From an uncultured Verrucomicrobiae bacterium (GTDB lineage Bacteria; Verrucomicrobiota; Verrucomicrobiia; Limisphaerales; DASXHY01): a stretch of DNA of 64,000 bases. The stretch spans positions 4,254,456 to 4,318,455 of the forward strand of contig OY969416.1 in the NCBI GenBank assembly GCA_963699145.1, written 5' to 3'. Below, piece by piece: positions 2,193 through 45,817 of this stretch. Below the pieces are notes generated by a model that searched no databases, had not been told where the DNA came from, and worked only from the letters and a program-made list of their open reading frames with translations. Each line of letters starts with the position of its first letter. The first letter of the stretch is position 1. A program made the translations under genes and the position numbers.

Positions 2193-5100
2193 TTAAGAAA
2201 TGGGATGTGGATTGGCGAGCGCAGCGGAGGCGGACGAATCTTCCGCTTTGCTGGCGGCCGTTGCGCGGCGATGCATGAAACTGAAAACGACCGGCACAAA
2301 CAAGAGCGTGGCGATGGTGGCCATGAACAGACCGCCGATCACCGCGCGGCCGAGCGGCGCATTCTGTTCGCCGCCTTCTCCCAGCCCCAGGCTCATCGGC
2401 AACATGCCGATCAACATCGCCGCCGCGGTCATCAACACCGGCCGGATACGGCTCGCGCCGGCATCCAGCGCGGCTTCGACTGAGTTCATGCCGCGTTGCA
2501 AATTGTCGCGCGCGAAACTCACCACGAGCACCGAGTTCGCCGTGGCCACGCCCAGGCTCATGATCGCGCCCATCAACGCAGGCACGCTCAAAGTCGTCTG
2601 CAACAGGAACAACGCCCAGGTCACGCCCGCCAGCGCGCCCGGCAACGCCGTGATGATGATGAACGGATCCAGCCAGCTTTGGAAATTCACCACCAGCAAC
2701 AGGTAAATGAGCACGATGGCCATCACCAGTCCTACTCCCAGGCCGAGGTAACTGTCGTGCATCGTTTTCGCCTGGCCGCGCAATGACAATCGTATTGCCC
2801 TTGGTCAATTGTTTCTGAGCCTGGGCCACCAACGGTTCCAAATCATGCAGCACACCCCCGAGATCGCGCCCGTCCACGCCGCCGTAGACGTCAATGACCG
2901 GCGCCACGTCGTAATGCGTGAATACCGGCGGGATGTTGCTCCGGGTCATCGTGGCGACATTCGCCAGGATCTGCCGCATTGGCCCCCGCGTTGACCGGCG
3001 TCGATCGGAATGTTTCGACTGAATTCATCGCATATTCGGGAACACGAGTATTAATCAGATATTGTACCCCAATCCTGGTATCGAGCCAGTAAGTCGGCTG
3101 CACCTGGCTGCTGCCGCTCAAACTGAGCAACACGGAGTTGGCCACGTTTTGCTCGGTCAAGCCCAACTCCGCGGCCTTGGCGCGATCCACTGTGACGCTG
3201 AGATGCGGCAGGTCCGCGGGTTGATGCACATGGGCATCCACCGCGCCCGGGACGCGGCGGATTTGTTCAACCAGTCTGGCCGCCACGCGACGATTATTTT
3301 CCTGGTCGCGACCGACGATTTGAATATCAAACGGCGCAGGCAAGCCGAAGTTCAACGTCTGGCTCACAATATCCGCGGGCAAAAAGTAAAACAAATTACC
3401 GGGGAATTGTTCATTCAACGTCTTGCGCAAACGGCGGACATATTCCTCGGTCGGCCGATGGCCGGCATTCAATGAAACCAGGATATCCGCATCGCCGGGT
3501 CCGATGACGCCACTGGTGTTGTAGCTGAGATTCACGCTGGAATTCGGGATGCCGATATTGTCCGTGATGCCGTGAATTTCCTTCGCCGGAACTTGTTTGC
3601 GAATCGCGGCGTCGATATCCGAGCAAAGCAGGATCGTTTCCTCAATGCGCGTGCCCGTGCGGGCGCGCACGTGCAGAAGTAACTGGCCCGCATCCACGCT
3701 CGGGAAAAAATCCCGGCCCAGCGGCAAGACCAACAACAGCGAGGCAATGCAAATTCCGAGGAACGTAAAACCAAAAACACCGCGGTGCGTCAAACACGCG
3801 CACAGCAGCGCGCTATAAGCTTCCCGGAAACGGTCAAAGCCGCGCTCAAACCCTTGTTGAATCCGGAGGAAAGGCCGCATCCAGAAAGGTGCATGGCTGT
3901 CCTCGGCGTGTTCCTCGTGCGACACATTGCGGTAAAACCACATCACCAGCGTGGGGACCAGCGTCCGTGAAATGATGTAGCTCGCCAGCATCGCGAACAC
4001 CACCGCTTCCGCCAGCGGCACGAACAGGAAATGCGCGACGCCGGTCAGGAAAAACATTGGCACGAACACGATGCAAATACACAGAGTCGACACAAACGCC
4101 GGCAACGCAATTTCGTGCGCGCCATCGAGAATCGCTTCCTCGAGGCTCTTGCCCGTAACCATGTGTCGGTGGATGTTTTCAATCGCCACCGTGGCGTCAT
4201 CCACGAGAATACCCACCGCCAGCGCCAATCCACCGAGCGTCATCAGGTTGATGGTCTCACCCAGCGCGCTGAGGACCGCGATGGAGCAAAGCACGGAAAG
4301 CGGAATCGAGAGCGCGATGATCAACGTGCTGCGCCACGAGCCGAGGAACAGCAAAATCATCAACGCCGTGAGAGCCGCCGCAATGATGCCTTCCCGCAAA
4401 ACGCCGTTCACCGCCGCGCGCACGAAGAGCGATTGGTCCGCAAACTCCTTCACCTGAAAACCCGGCGCCGAGATGGAACTCATGATGTGCGGCATGGCAT
4501 TTTTGGCGCTATTCACCACATCCAGCGTGGACGCGGTGCCGCTTTTCATAATCGTCAAAAGCGCGCCGCGCACACCGTCCTGCCGCACCGCGTTCTGTTG
4601 CGGATTGTAGCCGTCATGCACCTGCGCAACCTCGTGCAATTCGATCGTCGCGCCGTTAATCACCTTCACCGGAATGTGATTCAAATCGTCGATGGCGTTG
4701 ATCGTGCCGTTGACGCCGATGTCATATTCCGTCGGCCCCACCTTCGCCGTGCCGCCGGGCAGAATCAGGTTCTGGGCGCTGATGGCATTGACGACATCCT
4801 GCGGGGCGAGATTTTTCGCCTTGAGCGCGGGAAGATTCAGGTCCACTGAAATAACGCGCGTCTTTCCGCCGTACGGCCAGGGCACCAACGCGCCGCGCGT
4901 GGTCGCCAGCCCAATGCGCACCTGGTTCGCCGTCACGTCGAAGAGCTGCTGCTCGGACATTTGCGGACTGCTGAAACTGTATTGCAGAATCGGAACGGTG
5001 GAAGCGCTGTATTGAATGATCAGCGGTGGTTGCGTTCCCGGCGGCATCTGGCGAATCGCTGTTTGCGCGATCGAGCTGATCTGCGATACGGCGGCGTCAA

Positions 5101-5404
5101 CGGACGCGCGGGGCTGCAAAAATACTTTGATCACGCCGATGCCATTATAGGAAGTCGACTCGATATGCTCGATGTCGTTGACCGTGATGCTCAGCGCGCG
5201 TTCGTGGTTGTAAATAATCCGCTGCTCAATCTCCGCCGCGCTCAGGCCCGGGTATTGCCATACCACGCTGACCACGGGAATGTTGATGTTCGGGAAAATG
5301 TCGGTCGGCGTGCGCAGCAGGATCAGCGGCGTGATGATCAAAAGCAAAAGCGCGGCCACGACAAACGTCAGTGGCCGGCGCAAAGCAAGTCGGACAATCC
5401 ACAT
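2193..5404 (-). pseudogene. RND multidrug efflux permease (AcrB/HAE1-type), interrupted by two frameshifts
   Basis: Three collinear frame pieces. Piece 1 is 5404 down to ~2985 (837-aa ORF, MWIVRLALRRPLTFVVAALL...). Piece 2 is ~2984-2790 (frame of ORF 2185..2979: MRQILANVATMTRSNIPPVFTHYDVAPVIDVYGGVDGRDLGG...). Piece 3 is 2789-2193 (...RGQAKTMHDSYLGLGVGLVMAIVLIYLLLVVNFQSWLDPFIIITALPGAL...). Together they read as one full-length 12-TM RND pump. The shifts lie at the C5 run 2983-2987 and near 2776-2790. Confidence 0.8.
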
Positions 5405-5525
5405 AGGTCTTAACTTTCCGCCAATCGGCGATCTGTCAAAGTTACGATACGACGGACAGAATAACCGAACGGTTACTAATTAATGGATGCAAATCGGGTC
5501 CTTGCCTAATACAATCTTGCCGGGG

Positions 5526-5552
5526 TTATTGATACCTATTTAGTATCAATAA
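5526..5552. promoter_or_regulatory. Perfect 10-7-10 inverted repeat containing a T-N11-A core; candidate LysR-type regulator binding site
   Basis: TTATTGATAC-CTATTTA-GTATCAATAA, 12 nt upstream of the LysR start codon, in the divergent spacer between the LysR gene and the RND operon. Confidence 0.4.
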
Positions 5553-5564
5553 ATTGAGATTGTT

Positions 5565-6449
5565 ATGGAACTGCGACATTTACGCTATTTCGTGGCGGTG
5601 GCGGAGGAATTGAACTTTCGCCGCGCCGCCGAGCGCCTGCGCGTGGCCCAGCCCGCGTTGAGTTCGCAAATCAAAAACCTCGAACAGGAACTGGGCGTGA
5701 AACTGTTCGCTCGGACCACGCGCTCCGTGCAACTCACCCCCACCGGCCAGGTCTTTCTCGGCGAAGCACGCGGTATTCTCACCGCCACCAATCACGCGGA
5801 ACAGTTGGTGCGCAAAGCGGAACTCGGACTCGTCGGCACCCTGCGTTTGGGCGTCATCACACCCGCCACCGGCCCCCTGCTCGCCCGCGTCCTCCGGCAT
5901 TTTCATCAAAAATTCCCCGGCGTCCAACTCTCCCTCTCCGCGCTCACCACCACCGAGCAATTGAAACGTTTGCGCGCGGGCGAACTCGACGCCGGCTTGC
6001 TGCGCCCGCCCGTGGTGTCGCCCGATTTTGAAACGCGATTCGTCGAACAAGCTCCGCAAATGCTCGCCCTGCCCGCCGGCCATCGCCTCGCAAAAAAGCG
6101 AAAACTGGAATGGATGGATTTTAACGGCGAAGGACTGGTGATGATTCATCCCGACCTGCAACACAGCTTTTACGATCCTTTCATTGCCGCCTGCGCCAAA
6201 GCCGGCGCCAAAACCCACGTCGCGCAATACGCGCAGGATGTGCAAATAAAAATGTGGCTGATCTCCGCCGGCTTCGGCATCGCGCCGGTCACCGCCACGC
6301 TCGTGGAAATCCGCCGCCCTGGCGTCGTCTTTCGCCCCTTGCCACCCGGCTTGCCACCCGTCCAAACCATGCTCGTCTGGCGCCGCGCCGACGCCTCCCT
6401 GCCCGTCATCAAAAACTTCCTGGAATGTTTTAACTCGGTGAAGGCCTGA
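5565..6449 (+). CDS. LysR family transcriptional regulator
   Basis: MELRHLRYFVAVAEELNFRRAAERLRVAQPALSSQIKNLEQELGVKLFARTTRSVQLTPTG is a canonical LysR wHTH N-terminus, followed by a substrate-binding domain. It is divergent from the RND operon. Confidence 0.9.
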   Translation: MELRHLRYFVAVAEELNFRRAAERLRVAQPALSSQIKNLEQELGVKLFARTTRSVQLTPTGQVFLGEARGILTATNHAEQLVRKAELGLVGTLRLGVITPATGPLLARVLRHFHQKFPGVQLSLSALTTTEQLKRLRAGELDAGLLRPPVVSPDFETRFVEQAPQMLALPAGHRLAKKRKLEWMDFNGEGLVMIHPDLQHSFYDPFIAACAKAGAKTHVAQYAQDVQIKMWLISAGFGIAPVTATLVEIRRPGVVFRPLPPGLPPVQTMLVWRRADASLPVIKNFLECFNSVKA

Positions 6450-6495
6450 AAAACAGTGTTATAACGCGGGACTTTGATCCGCGAACTTCGGATTA

Positions 6496-6608
6496 ACGCA
6501 GGGACGCAAAGGACGCGGAGAAGCGCTGAAAGCGCCCGCAATCCACTGCGCAGATTCTCCGCGTCTTGTCGTTCTCCGCGAAACTCTGCGTTCTTTGCGT
6601 CTCTGCGT
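6496..6608. repeat. Long imperfect inverted repeat whose arms are short tandem units (ACGCAGG/ACGCAAAGG ... CTGCGTT/CTTTGCGT)
   Basis: Left arm is ACGCAGGGACGCAAAGGACGCGGAGAA (6496-6522). Its reverse complement recurs as TTCTCCGCG...CTTTGCGTCTCTGCGT (6575-6608), with an extra partial copy at 6555-6565. It lies in the convergent spacer between the LysR gene and the SGNH gene. Confidence 0.5.
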
Positions 6609-14903: not shown

Positions 14904-16463
14904 TTAACTCTTCCCCCGATAACTCGCCACCACCATATCACTCAGCACCTTATCCGGCGCCTCCACGGCATCCCGATCAATCACGAACTCCTGCGGGCCG
15001 GAATTCTGCGTGATAAGCTTCAAGCCAAATTGAAAATCCTTGAACCGTTTGCCGCACAGATCGCGCACCGACAGCTTCTTCTCCAACGCCTCATTCACCA
15101 GCATCTCCCCCGCCGCTTCCGTGAAACGAATCTTGATCCCATGCAATTCCTGGAACCGATGCGCGAATTCCTCCACCAACTGCCGCGCCACGATATGCTC
15201 CTCGCTCTGCGGATCGGTTAAAATTTTCTTCAACTCCGCCGCCGGATTTCCCACCAACTCCGGCGTGACCACAAAACGTTTCACCGCGGTCGACGGCAAT
15301 TCAAATTTAATCTCGCGAAACACCCGCTCGCACACCGTCATCAAACCGCGCGCGCCCGTTTGCTCGTTGCTCGCGCGCTCTGCGATGCGCCGCAAGCCTT
15401 CATCGGAAAACAGCACTTCAATCCCGTAAGCCGCAAAATCCTGCTCGTATTGCCGTATGATGCTGCCCTCCGAACTTTTCAAAATCTGGAACAGGTCGTC
15501 CGTGTTGAGCGAATGGCAAACGACGCGAACAGGCAGGCGCCCGATAAATTCCGGCTCAAAACCGAATTCAATAAAATCGCGCGTCTGGGCCGCCGTCAGC
15601 ACTTCCTCCGGCGCCTCAACATGCGATTCCTTCGCCGCAAAACCAATCGCCGCCTCGCGCAGGCGTTTCCGAACGATTTTTTCCAAACCATCAAACGCGC
15701 CGCTAACGATGAACAAAATGTGCTTCGTGTTGATCGTGCTCGGCGCCTTCCGCCCGCGTTGGATGTCCATCATCGCCTGGATTTGGCCCGCGATGTCATT
15801 CGGCGAACGAGACGGCACCTCGGTTTCCTCCATCAGCTTGAGCAGGTTCGTCTGCACGCCGCGGCCGCTCACATCGCGCCCGCCGCTGTGGTTCGCCGCG
15901 CCGATTTTGTCGATCTCATCAATATAGATAATGCCATACTGCGCGCGCTGAACATCGCCATCCGCCAACCGCACCAGATCGCGCACCATGTCCTCCACAT
16001 CGCCGCCGACATAACCCGTCTCGGAAAATTTCGTCGCATCCGCCTTCACGAACGGCACGCCGATCAATTCCGCTGCGCTCCGGATCAAATACGTTTTTCC
16101 CACGCCGGTTGGCCCCACCAAAATCACATTCTGCTTCGCGTAATTCGGCGATTCCTTCCCCTCGAGCGCCAGCCGCACGTGGTGATAATGATCGCACAAC
16201 GCCACGCTCAACACTTTTTTCGCCTCGTGCTGCTTGATGACGAAGCGATCGAGATATTCCTTCACCTCACGCGGCGTATGTTGAAATGCAAAATCCTCGT
16301 CCTTGTCCTTGTCCGCGCGCGCCTCCGCGCTGCCACCGGGAACCTCCTCCGCCGGCGTCGGGTTGCCTGGCGCGCCTTTTTGAAAATGTTGCCGCACAAA
16401 ATCTGTCAATTGCCGCTGAAATTCCTCCGGCGACAACGGAGTGTTGGATGCTGAAGCCTTCAT
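14904..16463 (-). CDS. ClpX-family AAA+ ATPase paralog (no N-terminal zinc-binding domain)
   Basis: Likely start is MKASASNTPL (ATG 16463). Walker A GPTGVGKT, pore loop GYVGGD, Walker B IIYIDEIDK, an IGF tripeptide (AAIGFAAKE) and sensor region GARGL are present. There are no CxxC pairs in the N-terminal ~90 aa. A ~110-aa C-terminal extension follows. Confidence 0.8.
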   Translation of the reverse strand: MKASASNTPLSPEEFQRQLTDFVRQHFQKGAPGNPTPAEEVPGGSAEARADKDKDEDFAFQHTPREVKEYLDRFVIKQHEAKKVLSVALCDHYHHVRLALEGKESPNYAKQNVILVGPTGVGKTYLIRSAAELIGVPFVKADATKFSETGYVGGDVEDMVRDLVRLADGDVQRAQYGIIYIDEIDKIGAANHSGGRDVSGRGVQTNLLKLMEETEVPSRSPNDIAGQIQAMMDIQRGRKAPSTINTKHILFIVSGAFDGLEKIVRKRLREAAIGFAAKESHVEAPEEVLTAAQTRDFIEFGFEPEFIGRLPVRVVCHSLNTDDLFQILKSSEGSIIRQYEQDFAAYGIEVLFSDEGLRRIAERASNEQTGARGLMTVCERVFREIKFELPSTAVKRFVVTPELVGNPAAELKKILTDPQSEEHIVARQLVEEFAHRFQELHGIKIRFTEAAGEMLVNEALEKKLSVRDLCGKRFKDFQFGLKLITQNSGPQEFVIDRDAVEAPDKVLSDMVVASYRGKS

Positions 16464-16533
16464 GTTCGACTCATTCAAGGTTATTTCGAATCGTCTTGTC
16501 ACCATAATCCAATTTTGCCATAAGACCAGAGCA

Positions 16534-17142
16534 TTGAGTTCAGAATTTCAACCAGCCGATCCCGCGCGCTTCGCCGCCGCGCTGCGCCGTTTCGATGCGG
16601 AAAATTCGCGCGACCCAAATTTTGAAACCATCGCCGGCGTTGCGCAGCCTCGCGAACTCGTCTACGCGCAATGGCTGACCGATTGGGTGTTGAAACTTTC
16701 TCCGCACGCTTCCGAAGAATTGCGCCTGGCCGCGCGTTGCCAGCATTTGTGCCGCTGGAAAATCCCGCGCGACTCTTACCCCATGACGCGCCCCGGCTAC
16801 CTGAAATGGCGCGCGGACCTGAAACGTTTCCACGCCGAACGCGCCGGCGAAATCCTCCGCGAAGTTGGCTATCCCGATGCGACCATCGCGCGCGTGCAGG
16901 ATTTGAATTTAAAAAAGAATTTCCCCACCGACCCGGAAAGCTGCGTTCTCGAAGACGCCCTCTGCCTCGTTTTTCTCGAGCATCAACTCGCCGATCTCGC
17001 CGCCAAGACCGCCGACGACAAAGTCATCACCGCCTTGCAAAAATCCTGGAAGAAAATGACTCCCGCCGCGCACACCGAAGCCTTGAAACTTTCCTACACC
17101 CCTCGCGAAAAAACGTTAATTGAGGCCGCGCTGAAAGCGTAG
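16534..17142 (+). CDS. DUF4202-family protein
   Basis: FDAENSRDPN...ELVYAQWLTDWVLKLSPHASEELRLAARCQHLCRWKIPR...YLKWRADLKRFHAERAGEIL is typical of DUF4202. The start is uncertain: an in-frame TTG at 16534 is proposed, while the ORF track start at 16441 overlaps the divergent clpX-like start. Confidence 0.7.
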   Translation: MSSEFQPADPARFAAALRRFDAENSRDPNFETIAGVAQPRELVYAQWLTDWVLKLSPHASEELRLAARCQHLCRWKIPRDSYPMTRPGYLKWRADLKRFHAERAGEILREVGYPDATIARVQDLNLKKNFPTDPESCVLEDALCLVFLEHQLADLAAKTADDKVITALQKSWKKMTPAAHTEALKLSYTPREKTLIEAALKA

Positions 17143-17200: not shown

Positions 17201-18004
17201 CTATACCATCTCAGCTGGTTCTTTCAGATACTGATCCAACCCCTTTTCACACCGCACCCTCCCTGACCGCAGCACCTCCTCCAGCCGCGCTTTGTTCGCG
17301 TCAAAATGCGGACGCGGCATGATCGGATGATCCAAATGAAACACCAGCGCCCGTCCGTAAACGAATTTGCGCCGCCGCCCCAAATTATAAACGCGACTCC
17401 CCAGGTCCGAATCCGCTCCCATCCCGCGGCCCTGATAGGATTCATCAAACCCATTCACCGCCACGACGTCCTCGCGCCAGTAAGCCATGTTGCAACCCAG
17501 AATTCCCCGCTGCCCGCGATCGCGCCGAACAATCGGAAACGGCAGCCTCACGCTTTTCGCCGGGCGCGCGATGCGTCCGCGCAAAGCCCACTGCCACGCT
17601 GAAGTCGAAACGGGATTAAACTCCGCGACAAACGGCTCGCGCACAAAACACCTCCGGCCCTGCACCCAGCAGCCGCGCTCCGCCAACGCGCGATGATCCG
17701 CGATAAATTTCCGGTGCGGCACGCAATCACCATCCAGAAACACAATATATTCCCCCGTTGCCGCCGCCACACACCGGTTCAGAATCGTCGTCTTGAGAAA
17801 TCCCTGGTCCGGCTGCCAAAGATGCTCCACCGGCACGCGCATTTTGGATTTCCATGCCGCAATCAATTCCTGCGTCCCATCCGCCGAGCCATCATCCGCA
17901 ATGAGAATTTGCTCCGGCGAAACCGTCTGCCACGAGAGCGCCCGAAAAATTTTATCGAGCGCGTCCCGCTGATTATAGGCGCAGATGATGAGCGAGAGTT
18001 TCAC
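17201..18004 (-). CDS. Glycosyltransferase family 2
   Basis: LSLIICAYNQRDAL..., ILIADDGSADGT, IVFLDGDCV (DxD). The proposed GTG start at 18004 overlaps the stop of the upstream ATP-grasp gene (GTGA). Confidence 0.85.
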   Translation of the reverse strand: MKLSLIICAYNQRDALDKIFRALSWQTVSPEQILIADDGSADGTQELIAAWKSKMRVPVEHLWQPDQGFLKTTILNRCVAAATGEYIVFLDGDCVPHRKFIADHRALAERGCWVQGRRCFVREPFVAEFNPVSTSAWQWALRGRIARPAKSVRLPFPIVRRDRGQRGILGCNMAYWREDVVAVNGFDESYQGRGMGADSDLGSRVYNLGRRRKFVYGRALVFHLDHPIMPRPHFDANKARLEEVLRSGRVRCEKGLDQYLKEPAEMV

Positions 18005-18960
18005 GGCACTTTGCGGGTTCGCGTGAGCAGATTTTTCCACGGCCGAAATTTCTGCAACGCCCCATTCTCCAGGCGAACCGACGAACCGTTCGGGCTGTCG
18101 ACCGCGTGCAGCGCTGACAAATAAGTCTCCCAAACCAGGTTCATGCTTTTGATGCGGCTCGCCGACGGATGCGCGCTCGGCGGCGCCACATGCGGGTTCG
18201 TGTTGATCTCGTAAACCTGGATTCGCCCCTGATACAATCCAAAATCCGCGCGGCCATATTCGATGCCCGCGATATCAAACACCTTCTTCAAATGCCCCGC
18301 GTAAGGATTCGTTTGCAGCAACGTGAGCTCCTGCTTGTACAGATCCTCCATGTCATCGAACTTCCGGCCGTATTTCACCAACCATACCGTGTCGTGCACG
18401 CTGATGTGCGGCACGATGGCATCGCCGATGCGAAAAGCCGACATTTTGCGAAACAACCCCGGCCGCAACGGCTCCGCGGCGAATTCTACGATCAGCACGT
18501 TTTCGCGCGGCGTGCCGCCAGCGATCGCGGTTGCAACACCCTTTTGCATTTTCTCCCGCGTTTGCAACAACTCACTCAAAGGCGCGCGATGCCCATGAAT
18601 CTTTCGGACAAACACCGGAAACCGCTTCACCGCATCCATTTCATCGACTCGATACGCATTGAAATCGTTGAGCCCCGCCGCGTGCAAAGCCCGCAACAGC
18701 GGATACCGCGTCCGCACCAGCGCCGGATTATTCAGCACGTGCAGGCCGGCATTTTTCATTTGCAGATACAAATGACTCGCGTGCTCGAGATCCCAAAAAC
18801 TCAACCGATCAACATCCGTGAAAATATAAGTCCCGCCGGGCAACGAACGCGCGCGAATCAGCGCATCATAATGAAGGCACCGAACCGTCGGCGCCTTGGC
18901 GGCGCCCTTCACTTCCTTGACGGTGTAACTATGCCCGCGCGAGTGGAGGAATCGAATCAT
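18001..18960 (-). CDS. ATP-grasp-fold protein (possibly TupA-like, sugar/polymer-modifying)
   Basis: The C-terminal GRADFGLYQGRIQVYEINTNP resembles the ATP-grasp Mg/ATP-binding E-x-N segment. The gene is translationally coupled to the GT2 gene. The specific function is not recognisable by eye. Confidence 0.55.
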   Translation of the reverse strand: MIRFLHSRGHSYTVKEVKGAAKAPTVRCLHYDALIRARSLPGGTYIFTDVDRLSFWDLEHASHLYLQMKNAGLHVLNNPALVRTRYPLLRALHAAGLNDFNAYRVDEMDAVKRFPVFVRKIHGHRAPLSELLQTREKMQKGVATAIAGGTPRENVLIVEFAAEPLRPGLFRKMSAFRIGDAIVPHISVHDTVWLVKYGRKFDDMEDLYKQELTLLQTNPYAGHLKKVFDIAGIEYGRADFGLYQGRIQVYEINTNPHVAPPSAHPSASRIKSMNLVWETYLSALHAVDSPNGSSVRLENGALQKFRPWKNLLTRTRKVP

Positions 18961-19053
18961 GCGAGGCGACCAATCATCGAATTAAAGTTCCCCTGTCCTT
19001 TGGCGCGGGATCGAGTCGAATAGCGCACAAGCTTATAAAAACGCGATACAGTT

Positions 19054-19095
19054 CACCCTCTCCCTGAGGGAGAGGGCTGGGGTGAGGGGGAAGGA
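19054..19095. repeat. CCCTCTCC/GGAGAGGG hairpin repeat with GGGGTGAGGG tail
   Basis: CA-CCCTCTCCC-TGA-GGGAGAGGG-CTGGGGTGAGGGGGAAGG has a perfect 9-bp stem. It sits in the divergent spacer between the ATP-grasp gene and the small ORF. Confidence 0.6.
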
Positions 19096-19200
19096 GATGT
19101 CGCAAATTCATTCCATCCGGAGATTTGTTTGGGCAATCACGCTAATAATGGTTATAACGCGCGCTTGACAACCTGCGCCGGATAATAGAAAAGATGGCTC

Positions 19201-19362
19201 ATGAAATCCACAAATAAGCGCATCCAGTTGGATTGGGCCAAACTAATGGGCTTCAACCAGGTCACGACGGCTCAAACCGCGGAGGACAAGAAGGCCTTCC
19301 GGGCTGCCCTCGGCGCGAAAATCGGAGGCAAAGTCGGAACCAAAGGCGGCGGCGTGGCATAA
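19201..19362 (+). CDS. Unannotated 53-aa ORF (candidate precursor-like peptide)
   Basis: Own translation: MKSTNKRIQLDWAKLMGFNQVTTAQTAEDKKAFRAALGAKIGGKVGTKGGGVA*. It is below the ORF-track size cutoff. It is on the same strand as the HExxH protein gene and 106 nt upstream of it. It has a Gly/Lys-rich C-terminus and no obvious SD sequence. Confidence 0.35.
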   Translation: MKSTNKRIQLDWAKLMGFNQVTTAQTAEDKKAFRAALGAKIGGKVGTKGGGVA

Positions 19363-19468
19363 GCGGCCCTGTCGACCAACGTCTCAAGCCGAATTAAAAC
19401 CGACTATTTGGTTTTAACCGGTTACGTTCCCTCCACTCCAGTCACGAGCTCGCGGCTGGAAAAATACC

Positions 19469-20473
19469 TTGTCTGTTCCCACCCAGGAAAATCTGCACGC
19501 GTTCGCGCCCAGCGCCGAACGCGTTTTGTTTCTCGACCAACGCATGCGCTCGCGGCTGGCTGACAGCCTTCGGTATATCCTCACCCAGGGCGACGGTTTT
19601 CTGGCGATCCCCCAGGACCGATTTCAAACCTTCCTCCGCGACCTCGAAGTCCGTCCGGTTTCGCCGCTGGCATTCAGTTTTTACAACGACGCCGTGCTCG
19701 CGATCGAAGAGGACGACCTCGAAACTGCCTCCGGGCTCCTCACTGAATTGACCAGACTGCCGCCGCGCACCAGCGGCCTGGAAATCCTCGAACTCGCCGA
19801 CCCGAACCAGGACGCCATCGGCGCGCGCTACGCCCGGTTCTTGAATGACGACCCGTCCGTGAAGTTCGAAATTTTTCCGCCCGCCCCACAAGTGGCCGCC
19901 AATTGCCGCGCGCAAATTGCCGACGCCTTCGCCCTCCTGGACGCCGGCGATCCGGAACTCGCCGCTGAACTGCGCGCGTTGCTCCGCGAAATCATTCTCG
20001 CCGCCGGAACCAAAGACCCGAAAGCGATGACCTTCGACGGCGCCTCGTCCTTCATGCTCTGGGGCGCCATCATCATCAACGCCGACCGCGGCGACGGCGC
20101 CATCGGCATGGTGCAAATGCTCGCGCACGAATCCGCGCACAACCTGCTTTTCGGGTTCAGCGCCGACGGGGCGTTGGTGGAGAATTCGCCGGAAGAACTC
20201 TTTTCGTCGCCGCTGCGCAAAGATCCGCGCCCGATGGATGGCATTTATCACGCGACCTTCGTTACCGCGCGCATGTATCGAGTCGTTCAACAACTTCTCG
20301 ACCACGGCGTCCTGGACGCCGCCGCAAAAGAGAAGGCGAAAAAGGATTTGGCCGACAACGCGCGCCTGTTCCAACAAGGAATTGAAACCGTGCGGAAATT
20401 CGGCAAGCTGAGCCCCCTCGGCGAAAGCGTCATGCGCGGCGCCAGCGACTACATGGCCACCGCCCCCGCCTAA
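19469..20473 (+). CDS. HExxH-motif protein, aKG-HExxH-type peptide beta-hydroxylase-like (TIGR04267-like domain)
   Basis: MVQMLAHESAHNLLFGF (HExxH) followed by RPMDGIYHATFVTARMY matches my recollection of the HEXXH-motif peptide-modification family. The start is TTG at 19469 and is uncertain. Confidence 0.65.
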   Translation: MSVPTQENLHAFAPSAERVLFLDQRMRSRLADSLRYILTQGDGFLAIPQDRFQTFLRDLEVRPVSPLAFSFYNDAVLAIEEDDLETASGLLTELTRLPPRTSGLEILELADPNQDAIGARYARFLNDDPSVKFEIFPPAPQVAANCRAQIADAFALLDAGDPELAAELRALLREIILAAGTKDPKAMTFDGASSFMLWGAIIINADRGDGAIGMVQMLAHESAHNLLFGFSADGALVENSPEELFSSPLRKDPRPMDGIYHATFVTARMYRVVQQLLDHGVLDAAAKEKAKKDLADNARLFQQGIETVRKFGKLSPLGESVMRGASDYMATAPA

Positions 20474-20679: not shown

Positions 20680-20755
20680 GGGGTTGTAGCTCAGTTGGTA
20701 GAGCGTCTCGTTCGCAATGAGAAGGTCAGGGGTTCGATCCCCCTCAACTCCACCA
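20680..20755 (+). tRNA. tRNA-Ala (anticodon CGC), CCA encoded
   Basis: Folded by hand: acceptor GGGGTTG/CAACTCC with the G3:U70 Ala identity pair; D arm GCTC-AGTTGGTA-GAGC; anticodon stem TCTCG/TGAGA with loop TTCGCAA (CGC); T arm AGGGG-TTCGATC-CCCCT; discriminator A plus CCA. Total 76 nt. Confidence 0.95.
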
Positions 20756-38300: not shown

Positions 38301-41277
38301 GACCCACACCCAGCATCCGCAATCGATGCGCCACCTGGTTGGCGCGCGCGTTCAATTCCACATAGCTGAAACGTTCCGCGCCATCGATCAAAGCGATCGC
38401 CGCCGGTGAGCGCGTCACTTGCGCTTCGAACAATTGCGCCAGCGTCGCATCGCGCGGGTATTCGCGCTCGGTGGCGTTCCACTCGACGAGAACTTTCTGC
38501 AACTCCTCTTCCGGCAACATCGGCAACGCGCCCAATCGCTGCGACGGGTCGGCCACCATCGCCGTGAGCAACACCTCGAAATGCCGCGCCATGCGGGCGA
38601 TGCGATCCGCATCGAATAACGCCGTGCTGTATTCGAACCAGCCCGCCATCCCGTCAGAGACTTTTTCGAGATGCAATCGCAAATCGAGTTTGCACGTTTG
38701 GTTATGAATTTCCTCCGGCTCGAAACCAAGCCCGGCCGCCTCAATTTTTTCCAACGGCCGATCCTCGTAATCAAACAGCACCTGGAAAATGGAATTGTAG
38801 CTCGCGTTGCGCTCCAGCTTCAGCTCCGCCAGGATTCTCTCGAACAACAACGCATCATTCGCCAGCGCACCGCGCGTGCCCTCGCAAACCCGGCGCAGGA
38901 ATTCGCGAAATTCCGGATCACCGCTGGCATCCGCCCGCAGCGCAATGAGGTTGTCGAATTTCCCGATCATCCCCTCCAGTCCGGCGCGAGGGCGAATGCT
39001 CACCTTGGAACCAACCACGAGATCCGTCGCGCCAGTGTAACGCGAAAGCAGCGTTTGGAACCCGGCCAGCAACACCATGAACGGCGTGCACTGCTCCCGC
39101 CGGCTCAAAGTTTCGACCGCATCCGCAAGCTCTTTCGGCAACACAAAACGCTGGCGCGCCCCCGCATCGCTTTGATGCGCCGGCCGCGGCCGGTCCGCCG
39201 GCAAATCCAGCAACGCCGGCGCGTCCTTGAGCCGTTGCATCCAGAATTCAAGCTGCTTCTTCTCGATCTCCGGCGGAAGTTGCAAACTCTCGAGCGCCGC
39301 GGCATAGCGACAACTGGGCGACGGCAGCGTCACCGGATGGCCGCTCACAAATCCCCCGTAAAGCGCCACCAACTCCTCCACCAAAATGCGCGTGGAAATC
39401 GAGTCACACGCCACCCCATGCAGGACGATGAGCAGCAAATGCTCGTTTTCACTAAGCCGCAGGAGTCGTGGATGCAGCACTGGCCGCGACATCACATAAG
39501 GCTTCGCCGCCTCTTTGATCGCCGCCTCCCGCGCCGCCGCCTCGCGTTCCGCTTCCGGCACATTGGAAAAATCACTCACCGGCAACTGCACCTCTCGTGG
39601 TTCGCAAATGATCTGCACCGATTTGCCATTCTCGACTGGAAAAATCGCGCGCAACGCCTCATGCCTCAGATACAGCGCGGTGAAACTCTGTTCCAACGCG
39701 CGAATATCCAGCGGGCCGCTCAATCGCACCATGGTCGGAATGTTGTAATTCGATTGCCCCGGCTCGAATTGATCCAGGAACCACGTGCGCCATTGCCCGG
39801 GCGTCAACGGAAGCTGTTCGCCCCTGGTCATCGCGGTGACCGGAAGCACCGGCTGATTTTCCGTGCTCACCTCGGCCAGATCCTCCGCCAGTGCGGCCAC
39901 CGTCGGCAGCATGAACAAACTTTCCAGCGGCGTCTCCATTTGCAGCGTCTCGCGAATCTGCGTGATGACCTGTGTCGCCAGCAGCGAATGGCCGCCCAGG
40001 TCAAAGAAATTATCCTCCACCCCGATGCCTTCCAGGCCGAGCACTTGCTCCCAGATGCGCGCGATCACTTCCTCCATCGGCGTGCGCGGCGCGACAAATC
40101 GCGAACTCAAATCCGGCCGCCCGCGGCCCGGCTCCGGCAGCGCGCTCCGGTCCACCTTGCCCGCGGGAGTCATCGGCAATGCCTCCAACCGCACAAACGC
40201 CGCCGGCACCATGTGGAAAGGAAGTTGCGCTTTCAGGAACGCCAGCAGATCACCCACGCTCACCTTCGTGCCCGCAGCGGGAACGTAATAGCCAATCAAT
40301 TTCTTGTTGGTTTCCCCGCGCGACACCACGATCGCTTCCTTCAAATTCGGATGCGTCCGCAAAATGGCTTCAATCTCACCCAACTCCACGCGAAACCCGC
40401 GAATCTTCACCTGCTCGTCCGCGCGTCCGATAAACTCGATCACACCATCCGCGCGCATTCGCGCCAAATCGCCGGTTCGGTAAAAGCGCGCTGCCGCCAG
40501 GCTTGGCACGCGATGTTCAATAAACGCTGCCGCCGTGAGTTCCGGCCGATTCAAATATCCGCGCGCAACTCCAAGCCCGCCGATAAATAATTCCCCCGTT
40601 TCGCCAATCGCAACCGGTTTTAAATTGCCATCCAGAATCGCCGTATCGACATTTGGCAGCGGCCGCCCGATCGGCAGGCTTTCATCAGTCAAACGCGCCG
40701 CGTGCATCGTGGCGATCACGGTCGCCTCCGTCGGCCCGTAGGTGTTGATTAGTTTCACCGCCTCGCCGACGCGGAATTTCCACCGGCGCCACGCTTCATC
40801 CGACGCTTTCTCGCCCCCGATGACCACCAATCGAACCGACTGCGGCATCAAAGCCGTCTGCAAATAATCGACAATTTCGTGCCAGTACGCCGTCGGCAGA
40901 TTCAGCACCGTCAATCGCTCGCGCTCGATAAATTCCATGAACTTCGCCGTGCCGGCCAGCACTTCCTCATCACGCAACACAATCGCGCACCCGCGCAACA
41001 AACTGGGAAAAATTTCCTCAACTGAGATGTCGAAACTGACCGGGCTGAATTGCAACACACGATCTTCCGCGCGCAAATCATACGCGCTCGCCACCGCCAA
41101 ATTATGATTCAGCAACGAACGCTGCGTAATCTCCACGCCCTTCGGCTTCCCGGTGGAACCGGAAGTGTAAATCACGTAGGCGAGATTCTCGGATTGACCC
41201 GCGGGCGCCAAATTATCGGCCGGTGCCGCCTCAATCGCCGCCGCCTGCGCCGGCTCATCGAGGCAAACCACTTTCAC
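32362..41277 (-). CDS. Non-ribosomal peptide synthetase, 3' portion (rest of A2)-T-C-A-T-C-FkbH-T-TE; continuous with 41255..45817 apart from a 1-nt frameshift
   Basis: This 2971-aa ORF begins in mid adenylation domain (…VKVVCLDEP…[17 protein letters not shown]). Domains were assigned from core motifs; see the sub-features below. Confidence 0.95.
   Translation of the reverse strand: [2971 protein letters not shown]
32428..33225 (-). other. NRPS domain TE2 (terminal thioesterase, Cys at nucleophile position); approximate bounds
   Basis: [13 protein letters not shown]..., nucleophile elbow [15 protein letters not shown] (Cys codon TGC at 32998-33000), [13 protein letters not shown] (His). Confidence 0.8.
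33283..33492 (-). other. NRPS domain T4 (carrier protein); approximate bounds
   Basis: [24 protein letters not shown] (phosphopantetheine Ser in GGHS). Confidence 0.85.
33688..35277 (-). other. FkbH-like domain (HAD-IIIC phosphatase plus C-terminal acyltransferase-like half) in place of an A domain; approximate bounds
   Basis: [22 protein letters not shown]...; HAD motif I [61 protein letters not shown]...[17 protein letters not shown]...[13 protein letters not shown]. No AMP-binding core motifs occur between C3 and T4. Confidence 0.8.
35353..36666 (-). other. NRPS domain C3 (condensation, canonical HHxxxDG); approximate bounds
   Basis: [15 protein letters not shown]..., [21 protein letters not shown]. 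Confidence 0.85.
36733..36939 (-). other. NRPS domain T3; approximate bounds
   Basis: [24 protein letters not shown]. Confidence 0.85.
36958..38445 (-). other. NRPS domain A3 (adenylation); approximate bounds
   Basis: [85 protein letters not shown]. A by-eye specificity-residue read gives D-L-F-S-N-A-L-T-Y-K, which is tentative and close to the Ala-type code DLFNNALTYK as I recall it. Confidence 0.8.
38503..39816 (-). other. NRPS domain C2 (condensation-like, degenerate active-site motif); approximate bounds
   Basis: [15 protein letters not shown]..., RHEALRAIF are present, but the HHxxxDG position reads [10 protein letters not shown]. Confidence 0.75.
39883..40086 (-). other. NRPS domain T2; approximate bounds
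   Basis: [24 protein letters not shown]. Confidence 0.85.
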
Positions 41278-41620
41278 GCCTTGAACGTTCAGTTCCGAAA
41301 AGCACTTCCGTGCGCGTCAGCAACAGTCTGGCGCGCGAATCACTCAGCATGTAAGCGATCCGCTCATCGGGATACGAACGATCCAGCGCCAGATACGCTC
41401 CACCCGCTTTCCAAATCGCCAGCAGCGCGATAATCAATTCCGGCGAACGCTCCAGGCACACCGCCACCAGCGTTTCCGGGCCCACCCCCAGCGCGCGCAA
41501 TTGGTGCGCCAATTGATTTGCGCGGCGATTCAGCTCGGCATAAGTGATCTCCTGCTTTCGGAATCGAACCGCCACCGCCTCGGGCGTGCGCGCAGCCTGT
41601 TCTTCAAAATGCTGTGGATA
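40123..41620 (-). other. NRPS domain A2 (adenylation), interrupted by the frameshift at 41298-41301; approximate bounds
   Basis: The N-terminal part lies in the upstream ORF ([14 protein letters not shown]...[10 protein letters not shown]...ARLLLT). The remainder lies in the downstream ORF ([69 protein letters not shown]). Confidence 0.85.
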
Positions 41621-44600
41621 AATTTTGTCGAGCGGAAAGCGAACCTGCTCGCCCGCCGCGACCGAACCCTCATTTGTCGGCGGCTTCGAGGCCACGCCAT
41701 TTAATTTCACCACCGGTTGCTGAGTTTTGCCGGGCTCCGCGGCAGCGAGGACATCGAGACGGATTTTTAATTCCTTCGCGAGCGATTGCACGCAAGGCTC
41801 TTCCAGGATTTTTTCGTGCACGCCTGGCACGATGCTGATGTCGACGCCTTTCGCCATGACTCCCCAGCCGTAATCGGCTTCAAACGAACACAAGATGGGA
41901 TGGCCCGGGCTGCGAAACAAATGGATGCGGCCGGCGTATCCCTTGGGGTGATAGTCCAGCAAAGCGCTAATGTGCGTGCGCCAAAGTCTTCGTTGATCCT
42001 CAGGAAACGAGGAGAGATCCACGAGGTTGCCGGCGTCCACCTTGAGCCGTTTGACGAAACCGTGCTCCAGCACTCCCGACAGCCGTTGCCGCAAGACTTC
42101 CTTTTTCCAACGGAAGAATTCGCGACGTTGAGCGGGAGTCCAATGCCGGAAATATTCTCCCCAGTACACCAGGTTTTTCGCAAACCGCGCAAGCCATGCG
42201 GGCGTCCAGGAAACTTTTTCGTATTCGGAATTCGGCGGCGAACAATTGAGCAGCGCGAGCATCGCCACTTCTTCGCCCTGTGCCTTCAATTGCCGCGCCA
42301 TTTCATACGCCACGTTTCCGCCAAAACAATATCCGCCGAGATGATACGGTCCGCGCGGCTGCAGCCCGCGGATGTCCTTGATATATTGCGCGGCCATCTC
42401 CTCGATGCTGCCCATCTCCTCGCCGCCGTCGAGCCCGCGCGATTTCAATCCGTAAACCGGCTGCTCCGTGCCGAGGTGGCGCGAAAGATTCACATAACCC
42501 CAAAACATGCCGCCGCCCGCCCCGTGCACGAGAAACAACGGCGGACGCGTGCCCTGCGATTGAATCTCCACCAGCGACGTGCCCGCGAGCGCGGACCCTT
42601 CCTGGATCTCTTCGCGAATGACCGCGGCCAGTTGCTCGATTGTCGGCGACTGAAAAACCGTCGCGACCCGCAATCGGCGTCCAAAAACCTTTTCAATCTG
42701 CGCGATCAATTTGACCGCCAGCAGCGAATGGCCGCCGAGATCAAAAAATTTGTCCTCGATGCCAATCGGATGCACGTCAAGCACGCTCTCCCAAATCTCC
42801 GTCAGCTTGAGTTCCACGGCATCGCGCGGCGTGGCCAGGCCTTCCACGAGCGGACGGCCGGTGCTGGGCTCCGGCAACCCTTTCCGGTCCACTTTTCCAT
42901 TGGGCGTCAGCGGCAACGCCTCCAGCGGCACAAACGTCGACGGCACCATGTGTTCCGGCAGACGTTCCTTGAGAAAACGCAGCAACTCGTCGAACGACGG
43001 AACTCTTTTGCCGCTGCAAACGTAATACGCCACGAGCCGATCGCGGCCCGAACGTTCCTTTCGCATCGACACCACACACTCGCGCACCGCCGGATGGCGG
43101 TCGAGAACGCACTCAATCTCGCCCAACTCCACGCGGAACCCGCGAATCTTAACCTGCTCATCCAGGCGCCCGAGAAATTCGATGTTTCCATCCGGCAGCC
43201 ACCGCGCCAAGTCGCCGGTCTTATAAAGCGATTGCCCTTCGCGAAACGGATTCGCAATGAACTTTTGCGAGGTCAGATGCGGCCGATTCCAATACCCCCG
43301 CGCCAACCCTTCGCCGCCCACGTGCAATTCACCCGGAACTCCAATCGGCACCGGGTTCAAATGCGCATCCAAAATGTAGCATTGCGAATTCGCAATGGGC
43401 CGGCCTATGGGAACGTTCGTCGCGTTTGCGGGCATCCCGCGAACCTCATAACATGCCGAAAAGGTGGTGTTCTCCGTCGGCCCGTATCCGTTGACCAGGC
43501 GCTGCGGCGGTTTGTGCTTGAGCACACGCGCCACCGATTTCGGGTCCCCCGCCTCACCGCCAAACATCATCGTGCGCACTGTCGCAAAGGCATCCGGCAC
43601 TTCCGCCGCCAGTTGGTTGAACAACGCCGCCGTCAAAAACATCGCGCTGATATTCTGCTCGCGCAGTTCCCGCGCAAAATCCTTCGGCGACAGCGTGACA
43701 TCGCGCGTGATGCCCACCAGCGTCGCGCCGTTGAGCAACGCGCCCCAAATCTCAAACGTCGCCGCGTCGAACGACGCCGTCGAAACCTGCGCCACGCGAT
43801 CCTCGCTCGTGAATTGAATGTAATTCGTGTTCAACACGAGCCGGTTCACGGCGCGATGCGGCACCGCCACGCCTTTCGGCATCCCGGTCGAGCCCGAAGT
43901 GTAAATCACGTAAGCGAGACTATCCGGCGTGCCTGTGCGCGGCAGATTTTCGCGGCTTTCGCGCGCGATCAATTCCCATTCGGAATCCAAACACACCGCA
44001 TTCGCGGGCTTCGGCAGCCGGTCGAGCAATCGTTGATGCGTCAGCAACACCGGCGTCTCCGAATCGGCCAGCATGAAAGTGATTCGGTCGCGGGGATACG
44101 TGACTTCAATCGGCACATACGCGCCGCCGGCTTTCAAAATCGCCAGCAGGCCGACAATCATTTCCAGCGAACGATCCAGACAAATCCCCACCAGCACATC
44201 CGGACCGACGGAATATTTTTTCAGGTAATGCGCCAGCCGATTCGCGCGATAATTCAATTCCTGGTACGTCACGGATTGATTGCCGAAAACCACCGCCACC
44301 GCATTCGGCGTCCGCTCCGCCTGCGCCTCGAACAATTCGTGGATGCACTTCTCCCGCGGGTATTCCGTCGCGGTGTTGTTCCAATCCACCACCACCTGTC
44401 GGCGCTCCGCTTCGCCCAGCAACGGCAGTTCCGACAATCGGCTTTTCGGGTTGGTCGCAATGCCTGCGAGCAAAATTTCGAAGTGTTCCAGCAACCGGTT
44501 GATCGTGCTCGTCTCGAACAAATCGCGGTTGTATTCCGCCTGCGCCACCAAGCCGCGCTCGGTCACCTGCAAAACCATCGTCAGGTCGAATTTCGCCGTG

Positions 44601-45817
44601 TCGGTTTCGCAATCGACGAACTGCAACTTCAGCTTCGGCCACGCCATTTCGCCCAGCGTGCTGTTTTGCAGGACAAACATCACGCGCGTGAACGGCATGT
44701 TGGTCGCCGCGCGTTCGGGGTGCAAATCTTCAACGAGTTTCTCGAACGGCAACTCCTCGTGCGCATAGGCGTTCAACGTGGTCTCGCGAACGCGCTGCAA
44801 AAGTTCTTCAAAGCTCGGATTGCCCGAAATATCCGTCCGCAGCAAAAGGGTATTGACGAAAAAGCCAATGAGCGCCTCGGTTTCGACGCGATTACGCCCG
44901 GCGATCGGTGAGCCAATGACAATGTCCTCCTGTTGCGTATAGCGATGCAATAACGCCTTGAACGCGGCCAGCGAGACCATAAACAGCGTCGCTCCGTGGC
45001 GCGCGCCCAGTTGCGTCAGCGACTCGCCCAGCTTGCTCGGCAACACGCGCGATTGAATCGTGCCGCGAAAAGTCTGCACTGCCGGACGCGGATGATCCGT
45101 GGGCATTTCCAAAACCGGCGGCGGCCCCTGCAAATTCTTGCGCCAATACGCCAATTGTTTCTCCAGCAAATCGCCTTGCAGCGTCTCCCGTTGCCACACC
45201 GAGTAATCCGCGTATTGAATCGGGAGCGCCGGCAATTGCGGCTGCCGTCGTTCGCAATGCGCGGCATACAATTCACCCAATTCCCGGAAACAGATTTTCA
45301 AAGACCACTCGTCGGACACGATATGGTGAATGTTCAGGACGAACCAATGATCCTCCGGCTGCATGCGAATGAGCGTCGCGCGAATGGGCGCGCCGGAACT
45401 CAGATTAAACGGCCGATTCACTTCGGCGCGCACCAACGCCTGCGCCTTTTCCTCCCGCTGCGTCGCCGCCTGGCCGCTGAGATCGTGCAATTCCAAATTC
45501 AGCCGCAAAGTTTTATCAACGAGCTGCGCGGGATTTCCCTCCGCATCGACGAATCGCGTCCGCAAACTATCGTGCCGCGCCATCAGGCCCTCGAGCGCAG
45601 CGCGCAGCGCTTCGATCTCCAGCGCGCCGGTCAGGTGCACAACCGTTGGCACACTGTACAGTGGGCTGTTCGGCTCGAGTTGGTCCAGGAACCAAAGGCG
45701 TTGTTGGGCGAACGAAAGCGGGATCGTCGTCTCCGCGGCTTTGCGGAGCCGCTCGGCCAACAAAGCGCGTTTCGTTTTGCCCTGGTTGTCCGGAGTGGAA
45801 TTCAGCAAAACACTCAT
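41255..45817 (-). CDS. Non-ribosomal peptide synthetase, 5' portion C-A-T-TE-(start of A2)
   Basis: 1520-aa ORF. Its last ~12 residues ([14 protein letters not shown]) are out-of-frame read-through after an extra T in a T4 run. The correct continuation, [20 protein letters not shown], is in the frame of ORF 32362..41277. Confidence 0.95.
   Translation of the reverse strand: [1520 protein letters not shown]
41768..42556 (-). other. NRPS domain TE1 (internal thioesterase, Cys at nucleophile position); approximate bounds
   Basis: [13 protein letters not shown]..., [15 protein letters not shown] (Cys codon TGT at 42326-42328), [13 protein letters not shown]. It is followed in the same open frame by a ~50-aa linker and then A2. 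Confidence 0.8.
42617..42829 (-). other. NRPS domain T1; approximate bounds
   Basis: [24 protein letters not shown]. Confidence 0.85.
42848..44341 (-). other. NRPS domain A1 (adenylation); approximate bounds
   Basis: [84 protein letters not shown]. A by-eye partial specificity read gives D-A-F-?-M-G-G-T-F-K, which is tentative and resembles aliphatic Val/Ile-type codes. Confidence 0.8.
44408..45724 (-). other. NRPS domain C1 (N-terminal condensation domain, no carrier protein upstream in cis); approximate bounds
   Basis: [45 protein letters not shown] (HHxxxDE). It starts ~30 aa after the initiator Met. Confidence 0.85.

Follow-up and report, generated by a model that had tools for sequence, protein, structure and literature searches.

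A conserved Lys-Gly-repeat peptide gene, an αKG-HExxH-type oxygenase and a divergent ATP-grasp protein form a probable RiPP-like modification module

In a 64,000-nucleotide (nt) stretch of contig OY969416.1 from an uncultured Verrucomicrobiae bacterium (the window), a 53-residue open reading frame (ORF) precedes the gene of a 334-residue HExxH protein, and genes for a 319-residue protein and a GT2 glycosyltransferase are transcribed divergently from this pair (Table 1). A sequence-only reading of this region had regarded the short ORF and the 334-residue protein as a possible minimal system for a ribosomally synthesised and post-translationally modified peptide (RiPP), had placed the large protein among the HEXXH-motif peptide hydroxylases on the basis of AHESAHNLLF and YHATFVTARM, and had considered the divergent ATP-grasp and GT2 genes more plausibly part of polysaccharide modification. 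The two ORFs are indeed co-directional and separated by exactly 106 nt, both motifs are present (within LAHESAHNLLF and IYHATFVTARM), and no ORF for a radical SAM (rSAM) enzyme, a lanthipeptide synthetase or a protease adjoins the pair in the window. The GT2 ORF was listed as 17201-18133, and its likelier start is the GTG at 18002-18004. In our judgement the locus is likely to be a RiPP-like peptide-modification module with three core genes, and four in the window's lineage. The pairing of peptide and enzyme thus holds, but the idea of a very small two-gene system does not, as the 319-residue ATP-grasp gene accompanies the HExxH gene in 69 of 81 loci.

To place the short ORF in context, we used 80 loci with homologs of the window HExxH protein (34-83% identity), which span Verrucomicrobiota, Planctomycetota, Alpha-, Beta- and Gammaproteobacteria, Myxococcota, Gemmatimonadota, Bacteroidota and Cyanobacteria (a Synechococcus); the nearest relatives, at 83% amino acid (aa) identity, are from metagenome-assembled genomes of Verrucomicrobiia, which makes a soil verrucomicrobium the probable origin of the window. 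When the 53-aa peptide was searched against these loci by tblastn, almost every one had a related peptide immediately 5' of the HExxH gene. In 72 of the 80, across phyla, a regular-expression scan recovered the leader motif in ORFs upstream on the same strand, one to five per locus and often two to five in tandem. In its strict form the motif occurs 82 times in the 1.5 kb of same strand upstream of the HExxH gene and three times elsewhere in these loci, i.e., 0.72 versus 0.0026 per kb or an approximately 280-fold enrichment, the remainder comprising 1.16 Mb of six-frame space. In the six frames of the window it has a single match, at 19228 on the forward strand. The window precursor and its homolog in locus L001 differ at 16 codons synonymously and at 15 non-synonymously. 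Cross-phylum conservation and the motif control lead us to reject a chance ORF; the 53-aa ORF is a genuine gene and is conserved. Searched with a profile, 5.8 billion proteins yielded 454 peptide clusters, for which every name given by the source is "hypothetical protein", and the family is without a model in Pfam and NCBIfam. A known precursor family was likewise rejected, as 40 peptides scanned against Pfam and NCBIfam matched only sporadically and by chance (DUF7216 in one of 40, at E 0.04).

The precursors share one architecture. The logo of 83 peptides reads (I/V)-x-L-D-x-S-K/R-L-L-G-F, with L at 95%, D at 90%, S at 59%, K at 68% or R at 21%, L at 95%, L at 86%, G at 96% and F at 89%, and this leader (consensus h-x-L-D-x-S-K-L-L-G-F) is followed by a variable spacer and a K-h-G-x-K tail. 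Gly (15%), Lys (14%) and Ala (13%) are abundant in the tails, which are arranged as K-[VIL]-G-x-K units: the pattern K[ILVMFA]G.K occurs 166 times in 83 tails, compared with 3.6 +/- 1.9 in composition-preserving shuffles, and a Lys-Lys spacing of exactly four dominates (222 cases). Gly is the invariant centre of each repeat and stands at position -2 in 63% of sites. With a median of five Lys per tail, Asp and Glu together make up only 6.3% of tail residues and have no conserved position; 74 of the 83 tails contain at least one acidic residue, whereas nine, including that of the close homolog L001, contain none. C-terminal tripeptides vary highly (GVA, KPA, KPV, IGA, RRL, VKG and others). In arrays of three to six paralogous precursors (L117, L119, L124, L126, L127), the paralogs hardly differ over their first ~37 residues, whereas the last 10-15 are hypervariable, with K-x-G-h-K kept. 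A conserved leader followed by a hypervariable C-terminus is, as read from sequence, the classic pattern of a RiPP precursor, and in 72 of 80 loci such a leader and variable core adjoin genes for putative modifying enzymes. Two homologs from Chthoniobacterales/Spartobacteria (L030:3662-3892 and L026:3750-4001) carry a C-terminal PEP-CTERM sorting domain after an AKVG unit; the L030 peptide passes TIGR02595 with 24 bits against a cutoff of 16, and neither locus has an ATP-grasp gene within 4 kb. These tails hint that some family members may be routed to the cell envelope by an exosortase.

The 334-aa protein belongs, by profile and modelled fold, to the α-ketoglutarate (αKG)-dependent HExxH oxygenase family (TIGR04267/IPR026337), as the sequence-only reading had proposed. 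It scores 94.6 bits against the TIGR04267 cutoff of 40 ("aKG-HExxH-type peptide beta-hydroxylase"; E 6.8e-27), with the match covering residues 151-324 and profile positions 2-176 of 177, whereas no Pfam family matches it; close homologs have already been named by NCBI. Its AlphaFold2 (AF2) model (pLDDT 86) retrieved from PDB by Foldseek, at E<=0.001, only the HExxH domain of ChlH/ChlBHExxH (8s5f; E 5.8e-10, TM 0.65) and SjiH (22ob; E 1.3e-6), and the predicted fold is of the ChlH type, distinct from zincin proteases and cupin αKG oxygenases. In a profile of 22 homologs, the HExxH motif aligns with those of ChlH (8s5f) and SjiH (22nu), and a downstream block, SPLRKDPRPMDGIYHATFV, aligns with sPWReDLRPpsGLlHAiFV of ChlH. 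Besides H220, E221 and H224 of the motif, the invariant residues are S247, P248, L249, R250, D252, R254, P255, M256, G258, I259, Y260, H261, A262, T263, V265, A267 and R268, all in the block, which may supply the third metal ligand or bind αKG. The 25 residues before M26 are conserved in homologs, making the long TTG-started form plausible.

The enzyme thus resembles ChlH/ChlBHExxH, PflC/PosC, PesO and BipH/BpmH in passing TIGR04267, in fold, in its HExxH motif and in the His/Arg block downstream. As in αKG-HExxH RiPP systems, it adjoins a leader-bearing precursor with repeated target units, comparable to the Gln run of PflA. It differs from the RiPP enzymes of this family in standing alone rather than being fused to an rSAM domain and in having a family-specific N-terminal region of ~150 aa. 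Whereas those systems have rSAM, MNIO, nitroreductase or Asn-synthetase partners, the constant partner here is an ATP-grasp protein, and the precursor family, with its LDxSKLLGF leader and K-h-G-x-K core, is unrelated to the ChlA, PflA, PesA and Bip precursors. Most characterised αKG-HExxH members are β-hydroxylases; the residues so far established as family substrates are His, Asp, Phe, Gln and Pro, and which reaction an enzyme carries out "at present cannot be predicted" (PMC13060819). The family hydroxylates runs of residues iteratively by leader-dependent β-hydroxylation; small side chains (Ala, Gly) favour α-hydroxylation and backbone cleavage, and PflC/PosC cleave oxidatively (PMC12636437). 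By analogy, +16 Da β-hydroxylation of the peptide is a reasonable guess, with a core that offers Lys, Gly and aliphatic residues in place of the targets known so far.

These precedents also raise the alternative that the HExxH enzyme acts mainly in oxidative processing. It would α-hydroxylate Gly or a small residue of K-h-G-x-K, as PflC/PosC do at Ala of ARMD, and the backbone would be cut to give C-terminally amidated fragments or to trim a follower, with the ATP-grasp protein ligating or extending the pieces. The preference of Ala and Gly for cleavage fits the invariant Gly of every repeat, the few, unconserved residues that follow the last Lys resemble a follower that is discarded, and no dedicated protease is conserved near the genes. 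However, cleavage yields an amide and not a carboxylate, leaving no obvious ATP-grasp substrate; the ARMD recognition motif is absent from the precursors, and the predominance of β-hydroxylases among characterised members points the other way. We therefore consider oxidative processing unlikely.

A third gene family, that of the 319-aa protein, is linked to the peptide and the oxygenase. When all ORFs of at least 90 aa within +/-4 kb were clustered in 81 loci, the 319-aa family was the only widely shared neighbour of the HExxH gene (69 loci); beyond these two families and antisense shadow ORFs, no ORF family occurred in more than 11 loci within that range. In 43 loci the 319-aa gene has the window's arrangement, divergent and upstream of the precursor(s); in 19 it follows the HExxH gene immediately and co-directionally, and the two genes often overlap by 4 nt. 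That the linkage survives rearrangement across phyla argues for a functional association. Reciprocally, when metagenome loci were chosen by the presence of a 319-aa family member, all 16 with 1.5 kb or more of flank on each side contained both an HExxH homolog and a motif peptide. In six HExxH loci without the 319-aa gene (L040, L042, L047, L051, L056, L058), the adjoining gene encodes a 600-700-aa ATP-grasp protein like the N and G domains of cyanophycin synthetase (CphA) but without the Mur-ligase-like M domain; judged by sequence, it is a non-orthologous replacement. Peptide, HExxH and ATP-grasp genes thus form a three-gene linkage in which the ATP-grasp gene is a near-obligate partner.

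This linkage bears directly on the reading in which the peptide and a β-hydroxylase act as a two-gene pair and the ATP-grasp and GT2 genes are unrelated polysaccharide genes adjacent by chance. In its favour, four well-flanked loci (L026, L027, L030, L044) have the peptide and the HExxH gene with no ATP-grasp gene within 4 kb, and GT2 enzymes and MOP flippases are typical of polysaccharide loci. Against it stand a co-occurrence rate of 69 in 81 that holds for two gene orders and about eight phyla, the full reciprocity of this co-occurrence, the non-orthologous replacement of the ATP-grasp gene and its translational coupling to the HExxH gene in many loci. Chance adjacency is strongly disfavoured and, in our estimate, highly improbable, and the earlier assignment of the ATP-grasp gene to polysaccharide modification has to be given up, since it is the most consistently linked neighbour.

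As to its identity, the 319-aa protein has no Pfam match and only sub-threshold NCBIfam matches, phmmer against PDB gave nothing meaningful, and all its homologs in databases are labelled "hypothetical". By contrast, a profile built from 27 diverse members matches D-Ala-D-Ala ligases (E 1.3e-4) over GRaDFg..G.pqvYEiNtNP, in which residues 236-256 align with the GRaDF...lEvNTaP Mg/ATP site of these ligases; R237, D239, E251 and N253 in this block, and K172 in the central domain, are invariant in the 27 homologs. With its AF2 model (pLDDT 85), Foldseek gave 342 PDB matches at E<=0.001, the best 50 of which are all ATP-grasp enzymes, led by RimK (7qys, E 2.6e-10), LysX (1uc9), ArgX (3vpb) and Ddl (5bph) at TM ~0.5 and 12-17% identity. 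The diverse-homolog profile and the fold search settle the ATP-grasp identity, for which phmmer was insufficient. The 319-aa protein is thus assigned, from profile and model, to a divergent ATP-grasp family without a database model, with a RimK/LysX/Ddl-like predicted fold and intact catalytic residues. An exhaustive profile search found 1,181 representatives (50%-identity clusters) at E<=1e-30. Some members carry C-terminal TPR fusions, and one is a tandem double ATP-grasp protein (P0368, P0369, P0409, P0410, P0413, P0418, P0371); TPR domains are peptide-binding modules, and the fusions suggest a peptide-binding accessory domain on the ATP-grasp enzyme.

The ATP-grasp enzyme invites comparison with graspetides of the microviridin type, in which a leader-bearing ribosomal precursor also adjoins an ATP-grasp ligase and multi-copy precursors occur. 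On a graspetide-type reading, the ligase would make intramolecular Lys-Asp/Glu lactams or hydroxyl-ester macrocycles and the HExxH enzyme would be a tailoring hydroxylase. A leader-bearing, Lys-rich precursor beside the ATP-grasp gene and the 74 tails with at least one Asp or Glu agree with this. Unlike graspetides, however, the core lacks conserved acidic acceptors: its few acidic residues hold no fixed position against a median of five Lys, and nine tails, including that of L001, have none at all. The ligase has no Pfam ATP-grasp match, RimK, LysX and Ddl head its structural matches, the best 50 of which (of 342) include no graspetide ligase, the oxygenase is obligatory here, and an HExxH-linked group goes unmentioned in a phylogenomic survey of graspetides. 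We regard such macrocycles as very unlikely.

The structural matches point instead to ligases acting on a carrier or a tail. The peptide could be a scaffold or primer rather than the product, like LysW (LysX/ArgX), S6 (RimK) or pearlin scaffold peptides, onto which the ATP-grasp enzyme would load amino acid(s), either on Lys ε-amines or on the C-terminus; the tethered unit would be tailored by the HExxH and GT2 enzymes and then released or kept as a poly-amino-acid tail. The best structural relatives are indeed the tail and carrier ligases RimK, LysX and ArgX (E about 1e-10, TM about 0.5), a small, about LysW-sized (~50 aa) partner polypeptide is encoded nearby with repeated Lys as several potential loading sites, and the replacement enzyme of the six loci resembles cyanophycin synthetase N+G, a primer-extending ligase. 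On the other hand, identity to RimK, LysX and CphA is only 12-17%, and no lysine/arginine biosynthesis or ribosomal context is present. In contrast to the defined or conserved acidic C-termini of LysW, S6 and the pearlin scaffolds, those here are hypervariable, without the conserved acidic tail of LysW carriers; multi-copy arrays with diversified cores resemble product diversification, and no release hydrolase is conserved within +/-4 kb in the 81 loci. A carrier role therefore appears quite unlikely to us.

The GT2 enzyme (Pfam Glycos_transf_2, 2.2e-17) is tied to the ATP-grasp gene within one clade. Its GTG start overlaps the ATP-grasp TGA stop by 4 nt (GTGA) in the window, and the gene called in relative L081 has the same overlap. 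A GT2 gene lies downstream of the ATP-grasp gene in 25 of 25 metagenome loci whose ATP-grasp protein is at least 62% identical to that of the window, compared with 0 of 29 loci with a more distant one, and the GT2 cluster occurs in six of 81 HExxH loci. The linkage is kept in L082, where the outer flanks differ; in a Devosia locus (L066) a distant GT2 gene overlaps the ATP-grasp gene, and P0401 is a fused ATP-grasp-GT2 protein. Overlap, clade-wide linkage, the Devosia case and the fusion make the GT2 enzyme a probable clade-specific fourth component and not the unrelated polysaccharide gene that the sequence-only reading had taken it for. Like glycocins, which use SunS-type GT2 enzymes, the locus encodes a soluble GT2 in the same unit as a ribosomal peptide; unlike them, its GT2 falls far below the SunS model TIGR04195 (11.9 bits against a cutoff of 350, E 0.072) and is confined to one clade of the system.

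Put together, these data lead us to favour the following scheme for the RiPP-like module, in which the peptide as substrate, the order of steps and the chemistry are proposed by analogy. The 53-aa ORF would give a precursor with the h-x-L-D-x-S-K-L-L-G-F leader, a variable spacer and a K-h-G-x-K core bearing Lys at every fourth residue. The Fe(II)/αKG HExxH oxygenase would bind the LDxSKLLGF leader and oxidise the core repeatedly, most likely by iterative side-chain β-hydroxylation of the K-h-G-x-K units at Lys or an aliphatic residue, or alternatively by α-hydroxylation and backbone cleavage at Gly. The RimK/LysX/Ddl-like ATP-grasp enzyme, whose reaction has to pass through an acyl-phosphate to an amide or ester bond, would use ATP to this end on the peptide, most likely acylating the repeated Lys ε-amines or the new hydroxyls and less likely forming an Asp/Glu-Lys graspetide cross-link. 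In the window's verrucomicrobial clade, the GT2 enzyme, translationally coupled to the ATP-grasp gene, would add a sugar. We lean, weakly, towards derivatisation of Lys ε-amines or hydroxyls over a graspetide cross-link or C-terminal tailing because the C-termini are unconserved, nine of 83 tails lack an acidic residue and Lys spacing is the strongest core feature.

Several points weigh against this scheme. Modification is deduced here from the genes. RimK, LysX, Ddl and the CphA G domain activate a carboxylate on a chain or amino acid and use the α-amine of a free amino acid; given this habit, a peptide Lys or hydroxyl nucleophile is not the default polarity of ATP-grasp relatives, and with unconserved C-termini and acid-free tails a peptide carboxylate for activation is not evident either. 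Lys and aliphatic residues lie outside the substrates shown so far for the αKG-HExxH family, and the four well-flanked loci without an ATP-grasp gene fit the scheme less well. No dedicated protease or exporter is conserved within +/-4 kb across the 81 loci; a leader protease or exporter is frequent in RiPP clusters but not obligatory. Finally, a search of the divergent spacer for a sigma-70 consensus found none.

A bolder version of the favoured scheme, which we hold to be doubtful yet worth stating, is a new RiPP class or ribosomal-scaffold pathway in which Lys-x-Gly-x peptides are hydroxylated iteratively, the ATP-grasp enzyme (amino)acylates Lys ε-amines or hydroxyls, and the GT2 enzyme glycosylates in some clades. 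If true, hydroxylysine-type hydroxylation and glycosylation would have a counterpart among bacterial ribosomal peptides, and a polycationic decorated peptide would be widespread in soil and freshwater bacteria. The likeness to collagen Lys hydroxylation and glycosylation is by analogy only, i.e., an αKG hydroxylase and a glycosyltransferase with a Gly/Lys-repeat substrate; glycosylation is putative here, and the Lys context is G-x-K-h-G as opposed to X-K-G in collagen.

Whereas the oxygenase family is already known, the precursor family and the ATP-grasp partner are new, both being without a Pfam or NCBIfam model. No description of an HExxH/ATP-grasp module was found in searchable full texts, a search that did not extend to the bioinformatic survey of the founding Nat. 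Chem. 2024 paper, and neither the R2K ATP-grasp clade paper nor the graspetide survey covers the system. αKG-HExxH enzymes have been recognised as peptide oxygenases only recently, and the cluster set is large and broad, with about 1,200 ATP-grasp representatives at 50% identity in eight or so phyla. Being small (three to four genes) and having clear substrate candidates, the module should make its chemistry accessible to co-expression and mass spectrometry, and among the bacteria that carry it are the cultured strains Devosia aurantiaca H239, Caenimonas sp. SL110 and Thioalkalivibrio sp. ALJT. Functional work would assign roles to two uncharacterised protein families and would probably widen the substrate and reaction range of HExxH oxygenases and RiPP-associated ATP-grasp ligases.

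Table 1. Features of the peptide, oxygenase, ATP-grasp and GT2 locus (window coordinates, except the last row)
Feature	Position	Strand or context	Basis or remark
Precursor peptide gene, 53 aa, ATG start	19201..19362	+	ORF confirmed; translation MKSTNKRIQLDWAKLMGFNQVTTAQTAEDKKAFRAALGAKIGGKVGTKGGGVA
Leader/recognition motif LDWAKLMGF, residues 10-18	19228..19254	+	logo of 83 peptides
Core region LGAKIGGKVGTKGGGVA with repeats KIGGK, KVGTK	19309..19359	+	K-h-G-x-K count
αKG-HExxH-type oxygenase gene, 334 aa, TTG start	19469..20473	+	TIGR04267, fold
HExxH metal-binding motif H220-E-S-A-H224	20126..20140	+	invariant in 22 homologs
Second conserved block, putative active site, SPLRKDPRPMDGIYHATFVTAR, residues 247-268	20207..20272	+	invariant residues in 22 homologs
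Divergent ATP-grasp ligase gene, 319 aa	18001..18960	-	profile, fold, linkage
Predicted ATP-grasp catalytic block GRADFGLYQGRIQVYEINTNP, residues 236-256	18193..18255	-	R237, D239, E251, N253 invariant in 27 homologs
GT2 glycosyltransferase gene, 267 aa from GTG at 18002-18004	17201..18004	-	Pfam Glycos_transf_2
Divergent intergenic region	18961..19200	no strand	presumed to hold promoters of both transcription units
9-bp perfect palindrome, CCCTCTCCC TGA GGGAGAGGG	19055-19077	divergent spacer	single copy in window
Stem-loop between precursor and HExxH genes	19387..19423	+	spacer folding
MOP/Wzx-like protein genes in L045, L055, L059, L068, L069, L071, L078	about 4950-6500 in each

The remaining features of the locus are of lesser weight. 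A promoter function of the divergent spacer is presumed from the divergent gene geometry. The palindrome in this spacer (fold z = -2.7), on which a spurious 45-aa minus-strand ORF (18974-19111) rests, may be an inserted element, because the equivalent spacer in L081 is only ~105 nt. The spacer between the precursor and HExxH genes, folded as 121 nt, has a minimum free energy of -34 kcal/mol (z = -2.4). Its stem-loop was rejected as a conserved attenuator or terminator, as the corresponding spacers in L001 and L002 (6-22 nt) are too short, and a role in setting the precursor-to-enzyme transcript ratio would be speculative. In seven proteobacterial loci only, a MOP/Wzx-type flippase-family membrane protein (Polysacc_synt_3) is encoded between the HExxH and ATP-grasp genes; the protein might serve in export or connect the module with glycan chemistry.

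Directly downstream of the HExxH gene, a tRNA-Ala gene (anticodon CGC, 20680-20755) bounds the module. On the other side, the GT2 gene is flanked by genes for a ClpX-like AAA+ ATPase (14904-16505, minus strand) and a DUF4202 protein (16441-17142, plus strand); these keep their synteny in the close relative L081 but are missing from L082, for which reason they were rejected as module parts, and they are probably unrelated to it. An anti-phage defence system was also rejected, as PADLOC matches none of the four locus proteins. Farther away, the window holds two adjoining, very long minus-strand ORFs at 32362-41277 (2,971 aa) and 41255-45817 (1,520 aa).

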